Source: Parcubacteria group bacterium
Lineage (GTDB): Bacteria > Patescibacteriota > Patescibacteriia > UBA9934 > GWF2-40-263
Direction of reading: 5' to 3'
Length of the DNA: 58,951 bases
Assembly: GCA_013204395.1 (NCBI GenBank)
Contig: JABMNZ010000002.1
Location: forward strand, 1 to 58,951
A program made the position numbers and the translations under genes. Each line of letters begins with the position of its first letter. Within the stretch, counting starts at the first letter, position 1. Under the pieces are notes generated by a model, which was not told the origin of the DNA, searched no databases, and saw nothing but the letters and a program-made list of their open reading frames with translations. This document shows, in pieces, positions 311 to 57,930 of the stretch.

Positions 311-1612
311 CTATTCTTTCACAACAACGGTTATTCCTTCTTCTGCCCACTCATAGATCCACCTCATGTCTTCAAGGGAAACGTTCACACATCCACGAGA
401 CATCTGATGACCGAAGTTGCTATGCCAAGGTGCATAGTGAATATAAATGTGTGGGAAGATGCGAAGATTATATGGAATCCAACCAAGGTCATAATTGTTT
501 GGATTGCCCTCTCCGTAATTCCACGCGTAATGCACAACTGGAACTTTGGCTAAGATGACATGATTTCCTAGGGGTGTTCTGTTACTGAGACCACTGGAAA
601 TGAGAAAGCTATTTTCTAATATGCCATCTATGGATGCATAGAGTCGTTGTTGTGTTACGTTTACTTCAATGCGTTTATCAGTTTCGGGAACAAACAAAAC
701 TCGTCCTGAGGTGTATAGCAATATGTTGTCGTCTGAGGCTATGTGAACACTTCCATCGGCAACTTTCACTGTTTGCGTAACCCCACTCTCATTGTAAATG
801 TATGAACTCGATGCTGTGGATAACATTATGTTTTTGTTGTGAACAACAAGCGAGTGAACACCGAGTGAATCAATAAAAAGTTGTTTTTCATTTTTTGTTA
901 CGACGGAACTTTCAAAACTAAATGTTCTTACTACAGGTGAGCTTGTGTGTTGTTGTGTCAAAAAAAGATTCTTGTCACTCACGTCACCAACAAGCCCGCC
1001 TCGGTCGTCAGCCCCGAATGCAAAAAAATTTTCTTCTATTTGTACCCCATCGTTCCAAGACCAAATGCGAACATGGGGACCACCGCCAGCAGCCGGAAGG
1101 GTCACAAGCTCAGCACGTGCATCTCCAGTAAGATCTCCGCACGCAAGATTCACGCCACCTCTAAATGATTCACCGAATGCGAAAAAACCACCACCATCAA
1201 TAGCTTCACCAAAACGATTAAACACTCTGACATGCGGACCGCCACCGCGCTGCGGTGCTGCGACAATTTCATCATAACCATCACCCGTCAGATCACAGGT
1301 TGTTACATTGATACCCACGCCCAATGTTGGTGCATAGGCTAAAAAACTTCCAACTTCAGATCCATCTTGGCGCAATACGCGTACTCGAGGTTCAGATCCC
1401 ATGCCAGCACCGATCACTATCTCCGATATGCCATCGTTCCCCAAGTCTGATAGGGCCATGGATACTCCACCAACAGTATCGTTCACATTCAATGAAAAAT
1501 CGATACTTCCATCTAATGATCGGATTTGCACGGATTCACTATGGTAGGCATGAGTTGGGATTGGAGGCGCAAGAAAGCTTATGGCTAGCAGTATCAGAAG
1601 AGATCGTTTCAT
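311..1612 (-). CDS. L,D-transpeptidase (YkuD) family protein with FG-GAP-like repeats
   Basis: Signal peptide; repeats DLGNDG/DLTGDG..GGGPHVR; C-terminal IHYAPWH...SRGCVN; start moved to MKRS (TACACT 8 nt upstream). Confidence 0.85.
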   Translation of the reverse strand: MKRSLLILLAISFLAPPIPTHAYHSESVQIRSLDGSIDFSLNVNDTVGGVSMALSDLGNDGISEIVIGAGMGSEPRVRVLRQDGSEVGSFLAYAPTLGVGINVTTCDLTGDGYDEIVAAPQRGGGPHVRVFNRFGEAIDGGGFFAFGESFRGGVNLACGDLTGDARAELVTLPAAGGGPHVRIWSWNDGVQIEENFFAFGADDRGGLVGDVSDKNLFLTQQHTSSPVVRTFSFESSVVTKNEKQLFIDSLGVHSLVVHNKNIMLSTASSSYIYNESGVTQTVKVADGSVHIASDDNILLYTSGRVLFVPETDKRIEVNVTQQRLYASIDGILENSFLISSGLSNRTPLGNHVILAKVPVVHYAWNYGEGNPNNYDLGWIPYNLRIFPHIYIHYAPWHSNFGHQMSRGCVNVSLEDMRWIYEWAEEGITVVVKE

Positions 1613-1644
1613 ATGGATATAGTGTAACAAAAAACCACCGTCGA

Positions 1645-1721
1645 TGGTGGACCTGAAGGGATTCGAACCCTTGACCCCCTGCTTGCAAAGCAGGTGCTCT
1701 AACCAGCTGAGCTACAGGCCC
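1645..1721 (-). tRNA. tRNA-Ala(TGC), CCA encoded
   Basis: GGGCCTGTAGCTCAGCTGGTTAGAGCACCTGCTTTGCAAGCAGGGGGTCAAGGGTTCGAATCCCTTCAGGTCCACCA; full cloverleaf. Confidence 0.97.
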
Positions 1722-1753
1722 ATCATCGACGGTGGTATTTGAATTGCGGCGAA

Positions 1754-1782
1754 ATATTACCAATCGTATCGCCTGTTGTCAA
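1754..1782 (-). promoter_or_regulatory. sigma70 promoter for tRNA-Ala
   Basis: TTGACA-17nt-TAATAT. Confidence 0.65.
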
Positions 1783-30866: not shown

Positions 30867-31792
30867 TCGATAAAGAAATTTGGAATCAGTTTGTCTTAAA
30901 GAATAGCCCACGTTCGGGCGCTTTTTTGCAGTCATGGGAATGGGGAGTATTTCAACGATCGATTGGGGAGAGCGTGCGCAGAAAAGTTTATCGGGAAGAA
31001 GGTGAGATTGTCGGGGTTGGGCAGTGGATTGATCGCGCCATCCCGTTTATTGGAAGTTATAGCTTTTGTCCTAAGGGTCCAATTGGTAAGTGGCAGCCGA
31101 ATGAAGATGGCCAAATGTTTCTTAGGGTCGAGGCCAACGATTCAGATCTTCCTTCTTACGCTCGTAAAACCATTGATTTAGATCCGGCCAACACACTCAT
31201 TACAAATCTGTCTTTGAGTGAAGAAGCATTGCTTGCACAAATGCATCATAAGACGCGCTATAACATAGGCCTTGCTAAGCGACATTGGGTACACATCCAT
31301 GTTAGGTCATCAGATTTCGACAACGCATGGGAGCTCTTTGAGCAGACGGCGGCCCGTGGTGAATTTAAACTACATTCTCGAGACCACTACGAAAAAATGC
31401 TTGAGGCACTGGCGAAAGAGCCATGCAGGGCTTTTCTTGCGACAGCTTCCTATGAAGATAGGGTCATTGCTGCCAACATCATGATTGATTTTAAGGGTAC
31501 ACGAACGTACTTACATGGTTCATCTGGTGGCGAACACCGAAAGATCATGGCACCATATCTGCTTCATTGGGAATTGATGAAAGACGCAAAAGCACATGGA
31601 ATAAAATCCTATGACTGGTGGGGCGTTGCTCCTGAAGGAGCTAAGCATCACCCATGGGCAGGTATATCTAGATTCAAACGTGGGTTTCATGGAGAAGATG
31701 TGAGTAGTCCCGGCACATTCGACTTGGTGAATAAACGTGCTGCTTACAAGCTCTACAAGATGGCTCGTAAGATTCGAAGAAAAATATCATAA
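30863..31792 (+). CDS. FemAB/FemX-family peptidoglycan bridge aminoacyltransferase
   Basis: FLQSWEWG, KTRYNI, YLHGSS, APYLLHW, YDWWG, RFKRGF. Confidence 0.92.
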   Translation: MIDKEIWNQFVLKNSPRSGAFLQSWEWGVFQRSIGESVRRKVYREEGEIVGVGQWIDRAIPFIGSYSFCPKGPIGKWQPNEDGQMFLRVEANDSDLPSYARKTIDLDPANTLITNLSLSEEALLAQMHHKTRYNIGLAKRHWVHIHVRSSDFDNAWELFEQTAARGEFKLHSRDHYEKMLEALAKEPCRAFLATASYEDRVIAANIMIDFKGTRTYLHGSSGGEHRKIMAPYLLHWELMKDAKAHGIKSYDWWGVAPEGAKHHPWAGISRFKRGFHGEDVSSPGTFDLVNKRAAYKLYKMARKIRRKIS

Positions 31793-46083: not shown

Positions 46084-46137
46084 GGGAGAGGGGGGTGACA
46101 AAACACACGGCATCGAGCCGTGTGTTTTGTCGTCCTA

Positions 46138-46601
46138 GGAGCTATCTGTAAGCCGAATTTTGTCTGCTTGTGGCGACTGCCGCAAGGAGATGACAATTTA
46201 TCTAGCCCAGCTATTGCTAGCTGGATCGTGCGAGCTACCAAATTTGCTCTTACACCAGAAAGGGTTTACCACGCCTCCGTGTCGCCACGGGGCGAGACGT
46301 GTAGCCATCCTAACCGATCCCGCGAAGCGGGACCCCGAACCAACTGGCGTCGGGGCTGATCAGGGGACACCACATCACTTTTCACTTTTCACCTCACCCA
46401 AGGGTGAGGTTAGTATTGTCTCTGTGGCACTTTCCCTAGGCTTTGATCATGATGCTCGGGAGCAATATTCCAGCTCCTGAATTTCAGAACTTATACCTGG
46501 TTGTCGTTAACAACTTTCTTTTTCGATGCCCCTTACGAGACATCGGGTGTTCGGACTTTCCTCGAACTGGCTCTCACCAGCCCGTAGCCATCCGATAGTC
46601 C
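46138..46601 (-). ncRNA. rnpB: RNase P RNA
   Basis: GAGGAAAGTCC, GGGAAAGTGCCACAGA, GGTAAACCC, ACAAAATTCGGCTTA; P1 pairs the two ends. Confidence 0.93.
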
Positions 46602-46635
46602 TAAGACGGAGAGAAGATACCAAACAAGAGGGCAA

Positions 46636-53986: not shown

Positions 53987-55807
53987 TTAGACTTCTATGA
54001 TCACTGGGAGGATCATTGGGCGGCGTTCTGTTCGTTTGAACAAGAGTTTGCCTACCTTGTCTCTGATCTGGTCGCGGATGTATTTAGGATCTGCGGCAGA
54101 TTTTTTGTCGGTTTCCTCAGTAACTTTTTTGATCAAGTCACGTGTGTCGGAGATGAGTTTTTGATTATCCTGCATCATGACAAACCCTCGACTAACAATG
54201 TCTGGGCTGCCAAATAGTTTGCCTGTCTTTTTCTCAATCTTCACGATCACGACAACCATACCTTCTTCTGCCATATGGTTTCTGTCACGCAATACGACCT
54301 GTGATACGTCGCCCACTCCAAGTCCATCTACAAAGACGTACTCAGTCGGGACCTTCTCATTAGTCTGGCGTCCGCCATCTTTCCAGAATTCCATTACCTG
54401 TCCGTTGTCTGAGACAAACACATGTTCTTCGTCCCATCCCATGGAGTAAGCCACAGAAGCGTTTTCACGCAATAGGAAGTGGTTTCCTTCGATAGGTACG
54501 TAGTACTTTGGTTTGAATAGAGCCAACATTAGTTTGATGTCTTCCTTTTTGGCGTGGCCACCTGCGTGTACATCCATCATTTGATAGTGCACAACCTTTG
54601 CGCGCTTTCTATAAACGGTGTCCATGAGCCTCTGCACAGAAGCTTCGTTTCCAGGAATAACCGATGAAGAAAAGATCACTGTGTCGGTTTTCCTAATTTG
54701 GACGCTGCGGTGCTCTCCGTTAGCAATACGGTTTAAAGCAGCACGTTTTTCTCCCTGGGCTCCAGTACAGATAAGGATGACTTTGTCGTCAGGATAGTTA
54801 TCCATCTGTTCTGGTTTGATAAGGGTAGATAGTTTGCATTGGATGAAGCCAAGTTCTTTGGCGATCTCTACGTTTGTACGCATTGAGAAGCCGTCGATGG
54901 CAACTTTCTTTCCAAGTCTTTCTGAGATTTCAATGAGCTGTTTCACACGAGCTAGAAGGGAAGCAAAGGTTCCAACGATCACACGCCCCTCTGCTTTTTC
55001 TAGAATTCGTTCCAACTCTTCGCCAATGACCCTTTCAGATACTTGGTGCCCTTCACGGTTGGCGTTTGTTGAGTCTCCCATCAGACAGAGTACGCCCTCT
55101 TTTCCAAGAGCAGCGATTTGCTGGAAATCCGCGTGTTCTGTGCCAGAAGGGTGGAAGTCAAACTTCCAGTCACCTGTGTGACAGACACGACCAACTGGTG
55201 TGTCGATCACAATCCCCACTGAGTCAGGGATGTTGTGGTTGATGTGGAAGAAAGAAACGGTGAAGCTTCCAAGCTTTAGTACGTCGGTGGCTTTTGTCAC
55301 CTTTAGGTTCAGCTTCTTAGTGTGGAAGTCTTCTTGGCGACGCTTGATGATGGCCGCTGAAACAGGGAGCGCGTAAATTGGTGGGTTACCAATGTTTGGC
55401 ACCGTGTGGGGGATTGCCCCGATGTGGTCATAGTGACCATGAGTGATAATGACACCACGAATATTTTTTTCCTTACCCTTAAGGTATGTCATGTTGGGGA
55501 TAATGTAGTCTACTCCCGGCATGTTTTCTTCTGGAAACTCCAGGCCCATGTCAACGATGATGATGTCGTTCTTATATTCAATCAGCGTACAGTTGCGACC
55601 AACTTCTTCCAGGCCTCCAAGAACGATAATTCGTAACTTGTCGCCACTAGGAGATTTAATTGTTTGCACGCGTGGTTGGTGTTGTGGTCGGTTTGGTGTG
55701 TGTGGCTTCTTAGGGGCATCTTTAGAACGAAAAACTCGTCCTTTATGCTTGGACTGCACGCCACCTTTCTGGGTTTGTGGGCGCGGTGTAGGTTTTTTTG
55801 TAACCAT
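53987..55807 (-). CDS. rnj: Ribonuclease J
   Basis: LGGLEEVGRN, THGHYDHIG, HTGDWK, HAGGH. Confidence 0.96.
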   Translation of the reverse strand: MVTKKPTPRPQTQKGGVQSKHKGRVFRSKDAPKKPHTPNRPQHQPRVQTIKSPSGDKLRIIVLGGLEEVGRNCTLIEYKNDIIIVDMGLEFPEENMPGVDYIIPNMTYLKGKEKNIRGVIITHGHYDHIGAIPHTVPNIGNPPIYALPVSAAIIKRRQEDFHTKKLNLKVTKATDVLKLGSFTVSFFHINHNIPDSVGIVIDTPVGRVCHTGDWKFDFHPSGTEHADFQQIAALGKEGVLCLMGDSTNANREGHQVSERVIGEELERILEKAEGRVIVGTFASLLARVKQLIEISERLGKKVAIDGFSMRTNVEIAKELGFIQCKLSTLIKPEQMDNYPDDKVILICTGAQGEKRAALNRIANGEHRSVQIRKTDTVIFSSSVIPGNEASVQRLMDTVYRKRAKVVHYQMMDVHAGGHAKKEDIKLMLALFKPKYYVPIEGNHFLLRENASVAYSMGWDEEHVFVSDNGQVMEFWKDGGRQTNEKVPTEYVFVDGLGVGDVSQVVLRDRNHMAEEGMVVVIVKIEKKTGKLFGSPDIVSRGFVMMQDNQKLISDTRDLIKKVTEETDKKSAADPKYIRDQIRDKVGKLLFKRTERRPMILPVIIEV

Positions 55808-55984
55808 AAAAAATAATAGGTTGTTTGGTAGTTAATAATATATTCAATTGTGAAAGAACGTGTTTCAGCCGTGCAATCGCTTTGCTATAGCGCTGGCTGG
55901 AATCTCTCTCCATTAGACGGACGTGATCTTTTTGATCCGGCCGCATGTTGCAGCAGGACTGAAAAGGGCACGTACCTGTACACA

Positions 55985-56069
55985 TGGTGGGCGAGGGGGG
56001 ACTCGAACCCCCACGAGGTAACCTCACTACGCTCTGAACGTAACGCGTCTACCATTCCGCCACTCACCC
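55985..56069 (-). tRNA. tRNA-Leu(CAG), CCA encoded
   Basis: GGGTGAGTGGCGGAATGGTAGACGCGTTACGTTCAGAGCGTAG..GGTTCGAGTCCCCCCTCGCCCACCA; long variable arm. Confidence 0.95.
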
Positions 56070-56085
56070 AATATGTGGACAGGTG

Positions 56086-57930
56086 TTATCGTAACGCCTT
56101 CTTTGTTTTGATGTACCAATCACTTATATTTGTGAATCGGTCTGCTGGACTGGTGATAGTTTGAATTGGCTCTAATGTAATTTTTTTTGCCACAGCTGCG
56201 CTGTAACGGGAGCGGTATAGAAACACGGCTGGTAGGTCTTTGGCAAGAAGTTCTTGAAATTGTATATATTTTTCTGCACGAACCGCGTCATCTGTTTCTG
56301 TTCGAGCTTCTTCTAGAAGTGTGTCTACATCATCATTCTCGTAGTTTACCAGATTCAGGCCCAGACCATTGCCTTGGCTTGAATGCCAGAACGGATATGG
56401 ATCTGGATCAGCTTGTAGCATTACTGATGTAAGTAGCATCTCAAAGTTTTGTGGCTCGATAACTTCTGAGAGCATGAGTTCTGCTGGTATTAGCGCGAGC
56501 TCGATATTGATTCCGATGTTGAGCAAGTCCTCTTTTATGCGTTCTGCGACTACTTTCATCTCTGATGAGTCGACAGTTGTAAGGGTTAATGAAAGCGCTG
56601 CTGGATCAGAGGAAGTCTCTTCCCCTGAGTCTTCCTTAGAAAGTTCTTCTACAAGACTATTTTTCAATTCGCGCATTCCAGTCAAGATATTTGCACGATA
56701 ACCGGCTTCAGTTAGATTGGACTGTGAAAGATCTGGGTCTAAGACGACCGTGAACCCTTCGTTGTATCCCAGCATTCCATTTAAGATCGGGCCATGGATG
56801 ATCTCTGCGTACCCATCGTGGAGTTCATCGACAATAGCCTGCTTGTTGATAGCTTCGGATATGGCCGTGCGTACGACCAGATCACCTAGAGCTGGGCTGA
56901 GTGTCTGGTTCAAATATAAGTTGGTTTCACGTGGAAGCTGTGGTGTGAGTAGCTGGACGTTTTTATTCTCTTCTACTTGGACAAGATTATCGTAACTGAC
57001 AATACTTGCACCCTCTACATTTTTATTTCCAAGGGCTTCAGTCAGAGCATTCACGTCAGAGTAAAATTTAAAGGTAAGGGTTTCAATGAATGGGGGTTGA
57101 AAATAGTAATCTTCGTTGCGTGTCAGGCTGTAACTTCGTACGGATCCTTTCTTATCTTTTGTGAACTCGTGAAATTTATATGGCCCAGTCCCAATCGGCT
57201 GAAGGTTGAGGGCGGCCAGGGGAACATTTTGTGGGAGCACATCCGCCCAGAGACTTGCGGGTAGAATGCCGACCGTTAAATGCTGCAAGAAAGGAGCGAA
57301 TGGTTCGTCTAAGATGAACGAAACGGTTTTGTCATTTTCTTGCACAACCGTAACTCCTTGAAAGTTAACAGCTAAAGGACTTCGATAGCTAGACGTTTGG
57401 ATGGCATTGATGGTGAATAGGATGTCGCGAGCTCGAACCTCTTCCCCGTTGTGGAAGCGCGCCTCGTCGCGGATGGTAAACGTGTAAACCGTTTTGTCTT
57501 CGTTGATCAGAATGTCGCTTGCAAGATCCGGGATAAACGATCCCTCACCGTCCCAGCGGACAAGTCCTGAATAGACAAGTCTTGATATGTCTTGATCCAC
57601 GTCATTCGTGGATGCATACAGGGGGTTGATGAATTGAGGCTCTCCAACAAGTCCTTCGGTGTATTCTCCACCGACGGCTGGAATTTCAATACGGTGAGCG
57701 GCTAAATATCCAATCGTACTAACACAAAAAGATAGCACTAGTACGATCAAGGCACTCCCCACTATTCGTTTTTCAGAGATAGAGAGGATGCTTGGAAGTT
57801 GTTTCCACTGTCGCCAACTTGGAAGCATGTGGGTTTTAGAAACGGAAAGGACCTGGCGCATCGTCAGATCTTTGACGGAGTCAGTTTTCTTTCCTGTTAA
57901 CTGTCTGAAGAATGTACGTATGTCTGGCAC
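56086..57930 (-). CDS. Peptide ABC transporter substrate-binding protein (family 5)
   Basis: GGEYTEGLVG, LVYSGL, PDLA, PIGTGPY, YPFWHSSQ. Confidence 0.92.
   Translation of the reverse strand: MPDIRTFFRQLTGKKTDSVKDLTMRQVLSVSKTHMLPSWRQWKQLPSILSISEKRIVGSALIVLVLSFCVSTIGYLAAHRIEIPAVGGEYTEGLVGEPQFINPLYASTNDVDQDISRLVYSGLVRWDGEGSFIPDLASDILINEDKTVYTFTIRDEARFHNGEEVRARDILFTINAIQTSSYRSPLAVNFQGVTVVQENDKTVSFILDEPFAPFLQHLTVGILPASLWADVLPQNVPLAALNLQPIGTGPYKFHEFTKDKKGSVRSYSLTRNEDYYFQPPFIETLTFKFYSDVNALTEALGNKNVEGASIVSYDNLVQVEENKNVQLLTPQLPRETNLYLNQTLSPALGDLVVRTAISEAINKQAIVDELHDGYAEIIHGPILNGMLGYNEGFTVVLDPDLSQSNLTEAGYRANILTGMRELKNSLVEELSKEDSGEETSSDPAALSLTLTTVDSSEMKVVAERIKEDLLNIGINIELALIPAELMLSEVIEPQNFEMLLTSVMLQADPDPYPFWHSSQGNGLGLNLVNYENDDVDTLLEEARTETDDAVRAEKYIQFQELLAKDLPAVFLYRSRYSAAVAKKITLEPIQTITSPADRFTNISDWYIKTKKALR

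Follow-up and report, generated by a model that had tools for sequence, protein, structure and literature searches.

A conserved leader-trailer helix encloses a stand-alone tRNA-Ala(UGC) gene of Candidatus Uhrbacteria and may take part in transcript termination and end processing

The leader and the trailer of a stand-alone tRNA-Ala(UGC) gene form a long helix with each other, and this helix is real and non-random. The best reading of the aligned sequences is that it would be a selected structure of a monocistronic pre-tRNA-Ala, stacked coaxially on the acceptor stem. Across orthologues, the long helix and an ordinary terminator hairpin are mutually exclusive, a point that an earlier note on this DNA had missed. 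The gene lies in the window, i.e., the whole analysed stretch of 58,951 nucleotides, which is contig C14 of a 1.10-Mb genome (31 contigs, 47% G+C). The host is an ultra-small bacterium belonging to Candidatus Uhrbacteria, and all matches obtained in an exact-pattern search for relatives were Candidatus Uhrbacteria MAGs.

The gene is read from the minus strand in the order TTGACA-17 nt-(TGg)TAATAT, ttcgccgcaattcaaat, ACCACCGTCGATGAT, the tRNA body ending in CAGGTCC, ACCA, TCGACGGTGG, TTTTTT, gttacactatatccat and ATG (Table 1). The predicted promoter consists of TTGACA (1782-1777), a 17-nt spacer ending in TGg, and TAATAT (1759-1754), and the layout TTGACA-17/18-TGnTAnnAT is kept in 7 of 10 orthologues. 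The transcription start is predicted near 1747, and therefore the leader arm falls within the transcript, as the earlier note had proposed on the basis of this promoter. The leader arm ACCACCGTCGATGAT is antiparallel to and in register with ACCATCGACGGTGGT, with 14 Watson-Crick pairs out of 15. In the leader, the nucleotides at -1 and from -3 to -15 pair with A73 and C75 to U87, and the sole mismatch is A(-2) opposite C74. The complementarity had been described in the same terms before, and the description was exact; the helix also buries the region of the RNase P site and the CCA end, as had been stated. The A-rich run caaata is located directly 5' of the leader arm, while at the distal end of the helix the T6 run (1634-1629) begins at the last pair. 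The tRNA itself carries G3:U70, its CCA is encoded (1647-1645), and A73 is at 1648. This stand-alone gene is a second copy; another tRNA-Ala begins behind tRNA-Ile where contig C12 ends. Downstream, the ATG (1612-1610) of an L,D-transpeptidase gene is located 16 nt past the T6 run and 33 nt past the CCA. Synteny of this gene and tRNA-Ala(TGC) extends to most of the family and to further families of the order. A homologue of the FemAB family (aminoacyl-tRNA-dependent peptidoglycan bridge) is encoded in the same window at 31211-31771 on the plus strand (68.6 bits), and the stand-alone tRNA-Ala(UGC) might conceivably be dedicated to a function in the cell wall.

Table 1. Positions of the tRNA-Ala(UGC) locus and related features in the window.
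Feature	Position	Strand	Basis
tRNA-Ala(UGC), 77 nt	1645..1721	-	ARAGORN (as TGC) and Rfam RF00005, 74.8 bits
Predicted promoter of the tRNA-Ala gene	1754..1782	-	Consensus scan, 10/12 match with upstream TG
Leader arm of the helix, positions -15 to -1	1722..1736	-	Direct reading, in-register pairing, covariation (alignment A1)
Trailer arm: A73, C74 (unpaired), C75, A76 and 11 trailer bases	1634..1648	-	Direct reading, pairing, covariation
T6 run at the distal helix end; putative termination point	1629..1634	-	Direct reading
Local hairpin CCACC-ATCGAC-GGTGG, borrowing C71 and C72 of the acceptor stem	1635..1650	-	Terminator scan
Extended -10-like TGtTACACT, 8 nt upstream of the next gene's ATG	1621..1629	-	Putative promoter, from sequence
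Secreted FG-GAP / YkuD L,D-transpeptidase gene	311..1612	-	Pfam YkuD, 66 bits, and FG-GAP
Second helix case: tRNA-Leu(CAG) (56069-55985) with both arms	55974..56084	-	ARAGORN, in-register pairing, duplex energy
RNase P RNA, bacterial type A	46132..46603	-	Rfam RF00010, 158 bits

Leader/trailer pairing was determined for all 28 tRNAs of the genome with both flanks, using 20 nt of the leader and 20 nt counted from position 73. The duplex energies were bimodal. Four tRNAs formed long in-register duplexes, namely Ala-UGC (-25.9 kcal/mol), Arg-UCU (-17.5), Leu-UAG (-14.9) and Leu-CAG (-14.7), and the remainder were at -8 or weaker. Shuffling the tRNA-Ala leader 2000 times gave a mean of -7.3 kcal/mol (sd 2.2), with -19.2 as the best value. 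When leaders were combined with the trailers of other tRNAs, 0.66% of the 756 mismatched pairs reached -14.7 kcal/mol or lower; therefore, about 0.2 helices are expected in this 1.1-Mb genome, against the 4 of 28 observed (Poisson P ~4e-5). The comparison with shuffled flanks that had been suggested in the earlier note was thus positive, for a subset of tRNAs, both in this genome and in related ones. The predicted 119-nt precursor (1747-1629) folds at -58.7 kcal/mol (z = -6.7), and the helix is present in both the MFE and the centroid structure. The view that the complementarity is a product of chance or of base composition can refer only to the small size of the motif and, given both null distributions, the recurrence of the helix and the covariation described below, its probability is negligible.

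In the second case within the window, tRNA-Leu(CAG), the leader arm (56084-56070) pairs in register with the trailer containing A73 and A76 (55988-55974) at 12 of 15 positions, and the leader begins right behind the stop codon of the upstream ORF (56086-57930). The duplex energy was included in the analysis because the in-register score alone misses offset helices. Such variants were observed in L140 (G006) and L082 (G038), where 8-9 perfect GC-rich pairs follow an asymmetric internal loop and the entire ACCA end is left single-stranded. Values of -12 or better for tRNA-Ile, tRNA-Ser and tRNA-Leu(CAA) of G001 were rejected as artefacts of an adjoining tRNA or an upstream terminator.

The tRNAs were compared with those of 40 relatives and then across 73 genomes of the family. 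The congener G001 has helices at the same four tRNAs (4 of 42 in total), with different flank sequences, and the census gave 1-2 of 39 tRNAs in G005 and 2 of 46 in G006. The flanks of Arg-UCU have no recognisable similarity between this genome (G000) and G001, yet those of G001 pair at -17.9 kcal/mol. The Leu-CAG helix of the congener (L085) also has a changed sequence and an energy of -23.4 kcal/mol. Isolated cases were found in other families of the order (L036, L082). The tRNA-Ala(UGC) helix, together with a T5-7 run, is kept in eight genomes from five genera (G000, G001, G068, G064, G062, G060, G005 and G006), and a weaker helix is present in G008 and G046. In an alignment of these 10 orthologues (A1), which contained 17 proposed pairs, 85% of the cells were paired, compared with 34-57% after the 3' partner had been slid by 1-3 columns, the paired percentage being inflated because the orthologues were selected for flanks that pair. 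Both sides had changed at 9 of the 17 pairs, and one column pair contained all four Watson-Crick types with zero unpaired cells. G000 and G001 differ by three double compensatory changes. The helix is present in 8 of 41 distinct tRNA-Ala loci, which is far above the 1% null. These eight loci share a homologous promoter, the motif AAAACC...GGTGG and TTTTTTGTTAT, and they are syntenic, as all of them adjoin the same L,D-transpeptidase gene. The excess of G:U over A:C (13 vs 6) leans to the sense RNA strand but is too weak to decide.

The trailer can also be drawn as the local hairpin CCACC-ATCGAC-GGTGG followed by U6, and a terminator scan recovered this hairpin as the earlier note had described it. 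That note had further proposed two mutually exclusive structures acting as a processing switch. In a two-state switch, the trailer would alternate between the long helix and the local terminator hairpin and so tune processing or read-through. Both folds can be drawn in G000, G001, G068 and G064, where the local hairpin has -7.5 to -8.3 kcal/mol in isolation. In G005, G006, G062 and G060, however, it reaches only 0, -0.9, -1.8 or -3.9, while all four retain the long helix and the T-run. The hairpin is therefore weak or absent in 4 of 8 genomes, and the conservation of both structures that would be expected of a two-state RNA switch was not found. In the window, the local hairpin (-7.6 kcal/mol in isolation) falls short of the long-range helix by about 18 kcal/mol, and G1:C72 and G2:C71 must melt before it can form. 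Moreover, the compensations that separate G000 from G001 are located in the hairpin loop, and at these positions selection would come from the long helix alone. The lack of hairpin conservation and the position of these compensations therefore indicate selection on the long helix, not on an alternative pair, and the switch is highly improbable. As a conserved alternative, the local hairpin was ruled out by folding the eight orthologous 3' ends.

The mutual exclusion of the long helix and the ordinary hairpin links the helix to termination. In most tRNAs of these genomes, a canonical terminator (AAAAA-stem-loop-stem-TTTTT) comes after the CCA. Among the 41 tRNA-Ala loci, a local hairpin terminator was found in 0 of 8 loci with the helix vs 22 of the 33 others (p = 8e-4), and among 155 tRNAs from four genomes a canonical terminator was present in 1 of 11 helix-bearing tRNAs vs 100 of 144 others (p = 1e-4). 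All eight helix-bearing tRNA-Ala loci have an A-run before the helix and T5-7 at its distal end, as in the canonical AAAA-stem-TTTT terminators of the genome. The locus of G011 (L004), which is without the leader arm, agrees with the window locus in its tRNA body (identical), its promoter including the -10 box and its T-run. It differs in having a local hairpin and a leader that is some 16 nt shorter. Thus, the 5' arm of the terminator stem can be located either downstream or upstream of the tRNA. Like an intrinsic terminator, the helix provides a G+C-rich stem that ends 0-2 nt before a U-run: it ends at G86/U87, T6 comes next, and the same arrangement is found in 8 of 8 orthologues. The compact hairpin with a loop of about 3-8 nt that characterizes intrinsic terminators is not present, as the arms are about 72-75 nt apart with the tRNA body between them. 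We know of no experimental precedent for a terminator in which a folded tRNA of 72 nt takes the place of the loop. Among public sequencing runs, only metagenomic DNA contains this locus, and the RNA runs match just the conserved tRNA body of other organisms.

An extended -10 element (TGnTAYNAT) or TATAAT, placed 8-9 nt before the ATG, is kept in G000, G001, G068, G005 and G006. The element after the T-run is probably an extended -10 promoter of a leaderless L,D-transpeptidase mRNA, with no room for a -35 box. With such a promoter downstream, a strong stop after the tRNA would therefore make sense, and the T-run could in part be kept as an upstream element of this next promoter. The helices of Arg-UCU and Leu-CAG have no U-run directly after them, and their trailers are without a significant local fold; both tRNAs are wedged between co-oriented ORFs that are 17-41 nt away. 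Downstream of Arg-UCU, Ala-UGC and Leu-UAG, the next ORF begins 28-41 nt past the CCA. Since the U-run is lacking at Arg-UCU and Leu-CAG, termination cannot be the general function of these helices. The general role is more likely that of an end-clamp and processing stem, to which termination has been added at tRNA-Ala and possibly also at tRNA-Leu(UAG).

According to the explanation that we propose, the helix at tRNA-Ala would take over from the usual downstream hairpin and supply the terminator stem, giving an intrinsic terminator that may be described as "split". The acceptor stem would nucleate it: the 3' strand of the acceptor and then the trailer would exit the polymerase and zip onto the waiting leader arm. 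With the helix ending exactly at U6, the polymerase would let go of the RNA immediately ahead of the promoter from which the next, leaderless gene is transcribed. Both ends of the released RNA of about 119 nt would be clamped, and RNase P could still recognise its site by a conserved bubble of one or two bases, formed by A(-2) and C74 and in many cases also by -1/73. RNase III would most likely make a double-strand cut, after which the trailer, still paired, and the detached leader would be removed. Termination at the U-run, the role of the bubble for RNase P and the cutting of the helix by RNase III are inferred steps of this scheme. Taken as a whole, this explanation is moderately probable.

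The pattern of conservation near the cleavage site is in agreement with the proposed bubble. In 9 of 10 orthologues position -2 is A, which leaves C74 without a partner. The pairs G(-3):C75 and U(-4):A76 do not vary, and -1:A73 is paired in only 4 of 10. A(-2) acts as a positive determinant for bacterial (E. coli) RNase P, while a leader that forms two pairs with RCCA inhibits the enzyme (PMC9433436). In yeast and human pre-tRNAs, an extension of more than 6 bp requires a mismatch or bulge at the cleavage site (PMC8457004), and the A(-2)/C74 bubble fits this eukaryotic rule. The G+1 of the helix-bearing precursors must be cut by RNase P, the RNA component of which is encoded in the window (Table 1). 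This RNA has 472 nt compared with 367 positions of the model, which corresponds to about 100 nt of inserted sequence.

The set of nucleases found in the genome is a further factor to be considered. An RNase III gene is present at C22:832-1488 (TIGR02191, 222 bits), and the genome also encodes RNase J, RNase Y and PNPase, whereas the genome search revealed no RNase E/G, no RNase Z above the cut-off and no RNB-family enzyme (RNase II/R). Among the 3' exonucleases covered by this search (RNB family and PNPase), PNPase was the only one detected. PNPase is expected to stall at a GC-rich duplex. As the GC-rich 14-bp trailer duplex would thus be hard to remove unless both strands are cut, RNase III is the obvious candidate, and the helix may be an RNase III-like substrate. 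The RNase J gene (TIGR00649, 568 bits) is located at 53987-55807 on the minus strand, downstream of the helix-bearing tRNA-Leu(CAG), and a 455-aa beta-CASP protein similar to aCPSF1/Cas14 is encoded at C17:14293-15660.

The same data bear on a simpler interpretation, in which the helix is purely a processing stem for RNase III, as in rRNA, while the terminator lies elsewhere and the T-run belongs to the next promoter. The arrangement at Arg(UCU) and Leu(CAG), with no adjacent U-run and co-oriented ORFs close by, is in favour of this interpretation, as are the presence of RNase III in a genome where RNase E/G, RNase Z and RNB were not detected and the expected stalling of PNPase. The paired and covarying flanks (9 of 17 pairs changed on both sides) are also what is found in RNase III leader-trailer stems, which the enzyme cuts in a staggered way with 2-nt 3' overhangs. 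On the other hand, the T-run follows the tRNA-Ala helix in 8 of 8 genomes, including G062 and G060, which are without an adjacent -10 box, and the mutual exclusion of the helix and hairpin terminators also counts against it. The length of the helix is a further difficulty. It has 13 contiguous pairs and a 1x1 mismatch, and its 14-15 bp alone are short for a classical RNase III substrate, the stem of which has about two turns; about 22 bp are reached only if the helix is stacked on the acceptor stem. A role in processing alone is therefore unlikely, though far from negligible, and the split terminator with RNase III processing is the preferred reading.

Inverted repeats around a whole tRNA gene may also act at the level of DNA. 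In three relatives, G060 (L153, ~1400-1700), G008 (L007, ~1400-1660) and G046 (L159, ~1400-1660), a complete tRNA-Ala(TGC) is nested in a broken tRNA-Ala. The nested gene keeps its own leader/trailer helix and is placed between separate inverted arms of 14-17 bp, so that a 5' fragment (1 to ~22) is followed by the arm CCCCGTATTACAAC or CCCAGCACTACAACAAT, the whole unit, the complementary arm, and a 3' fragment starting from the anticodon loop. The outer broken copy has acquired acceptor-stem mismatches in G008 and G046; in G060 it is still next to the L,D-transpeptidase gene and has kept its ancestral promoter, helix and T-run. Among 185,579 species genomes, the junction motif was found only in these three. 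The presence of helix-bearing inserts in three relatives therefore indicates that a DNA-level role of flanking inverted repeats is real in this lineage.

It might be supposed from these cases that the inverted repeat in the window is likewise the border or stalk of a small mobile "replacement tRNA" cassette inserting in resident tRNA genes, rather than a signal in the RNA. The GGGCCTG-type tRNA body is 95-100% identical across distant genera while close relatives differ, which agrees with such mobility, as do the nested genes themselves. The fragments of the old copy that are found just outside the repeat in G060, G008 and G046 are, however, absent here, with no tRNA fragment in the 1.5 kb to either side of the four helix tRNAs; for want of tRNA wreckage nearby, the cassette reading was rejected for the window locus. 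Further evidence against it is that the 3' arm contains the tRNA's own A73 and CCA, and that the helix occupies one syntenic site, from a conserved promoter to the L,D-transpeptidase, with compensatory changes over five genera. In G060, the outer gene has its helix, and the insert carries another of its own, enclosed by a separate pair of outer arms; helix and cassette border are therefore distinct. A cassette border is thus quite improbable as the explanation of the helix. A wider proposal combines both levels: some of the tRNA genes of Patescibacteria would be "stalked", with leader, trailer and acceptor stem joined in one long helix. The stalk would be a split terminator stem, an RNase III entry standing in for the missing RNases E, Z and R in 3'-end maturation, and, when folded as DNA, a handle for copying tRNA units over resident genes, as in the nested cases of G060, G008 and G046. 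We regard this proposal as improbable.

Several further observations concern the other tRNAs of the genome. The same 40-nt palindromic trailer, gccgtcgctccatcagtattgttagttgatggagcgacgg, follows tRNA-Ala(GGC) (C5, 62595) and tRNA-Leu(TAA) (C27, 39482), and similar palindromes (...cgctcca...tggagcg...) are located after tRNA-Ala in genomes of other families (L010, L011). At C28:22493-22566 on the minus strand, a tRNA-Arg(GCG)-like gene (49 bits) escaped ARAGORN because of three mismatched pairs in its acceptor stem. A 27-bit tRNA-like sequence with an odd D/anticodon region is located at C25:75230-75305 on the plus strand.

To our knowledge, no experimental work has dealt with tRNA maturation in the candidate phyla radiation. 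By genome search, these cells are without several textbook tRNA-processing nucleases, and a conserved helix burying both ends of a pre-tRNA implies an ordered pathway unlike those of E. coli and B. subtilis. It would also be a simple case of an intrinsic terminator with distant arms and bears on the nucleation of terminator hairpins. For genome annotation, it is worth noting that tRNA genes in these genomes may have no recognisable downstream terminator.

The helix may be compared with several known systems, although our literature search brought up no account of bacterial tRNAs flanked by a long leader/trailer helix, nor of tRNA processing in CPR. As in miniature inverted-repeat elements or tRNA-inside-tRNA cassettes, the inverted repeats flank a whole tRNA gene; unlike in those, there is no broken outer copy in this genome, and the helix is an old, syntenic and covarying part of the resident gene. 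As in the RNase III stems of bacterial pre-rRNA (PMC10250234; for S. aureus, PMC3386247), the flanks enclose a stable RNA, they covary, and an RNase III gene is present, but the pre-rRNA stems are longer, belong to operons with antitermination and are not known around single bacterial tRNAs. The E. coli leader:3'-RCCA anti-determinant (Zhu et al. 2022, PMC9433436) is similar in that the leader pairs with RCCA and extends the acceptor stem. In that case, the pairing comprises 1-2 pairs at -1/-2, with N(-1) and N(-2) both paired with R73 and C74, whereas here -2 is unpaired and the pairing runs from -3 for at least 12 bp into the trailer. The Rho-independent terminators abutting tRNA 3' ends in E. 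coli (Agrawal, Mohanty and Kushner, 2014, PMC4176162) must likewise go before the CCA is usable, and they are removed by RNase P, PNPase or RNase E. Both of their arms are downstream, however, while in tRNA-Ala the 5' arm is upstream and the tRNA is in the "loop". The architecture bears a resemblance to eukaryotic pre-tRNAs, including the mismatch at the RNase P site. Extended acceptor stems are known from eukaryotic nuclear pre-tRNA (Lee et al. 1997, in the account given in PMC8457004) and from the MALAT1-mascRNA precursor (Torabi et al. 2021, PMC8457004), with which the helix shares leader-trailer pairing of more than 6 bp, coaxial stacking, a mismatch or bulge by the RNase P site and a U-run after the trailer. 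In tRNA-Ala, the extension likewise exceeds 6 bp and has an adjoining mismatch, which in a bacterial host is a functional likeness rather than membership. Those precursors are transcribed by Pol III or Pol II and have no encoded CCA, whereas tRNA-Ala is bacterial, its encoded CCA lies inside the helix, and the helix appears to be the terminator stem. Summarizing, the tRNA-Ala helix resembles the eukaryotic extended stem, the rRNA stem and the Rho-independent terminator in the way it would work, but it is a full member of none of these three classes; it is well supported as a structure, and the mechanism proposed for it is plausible.
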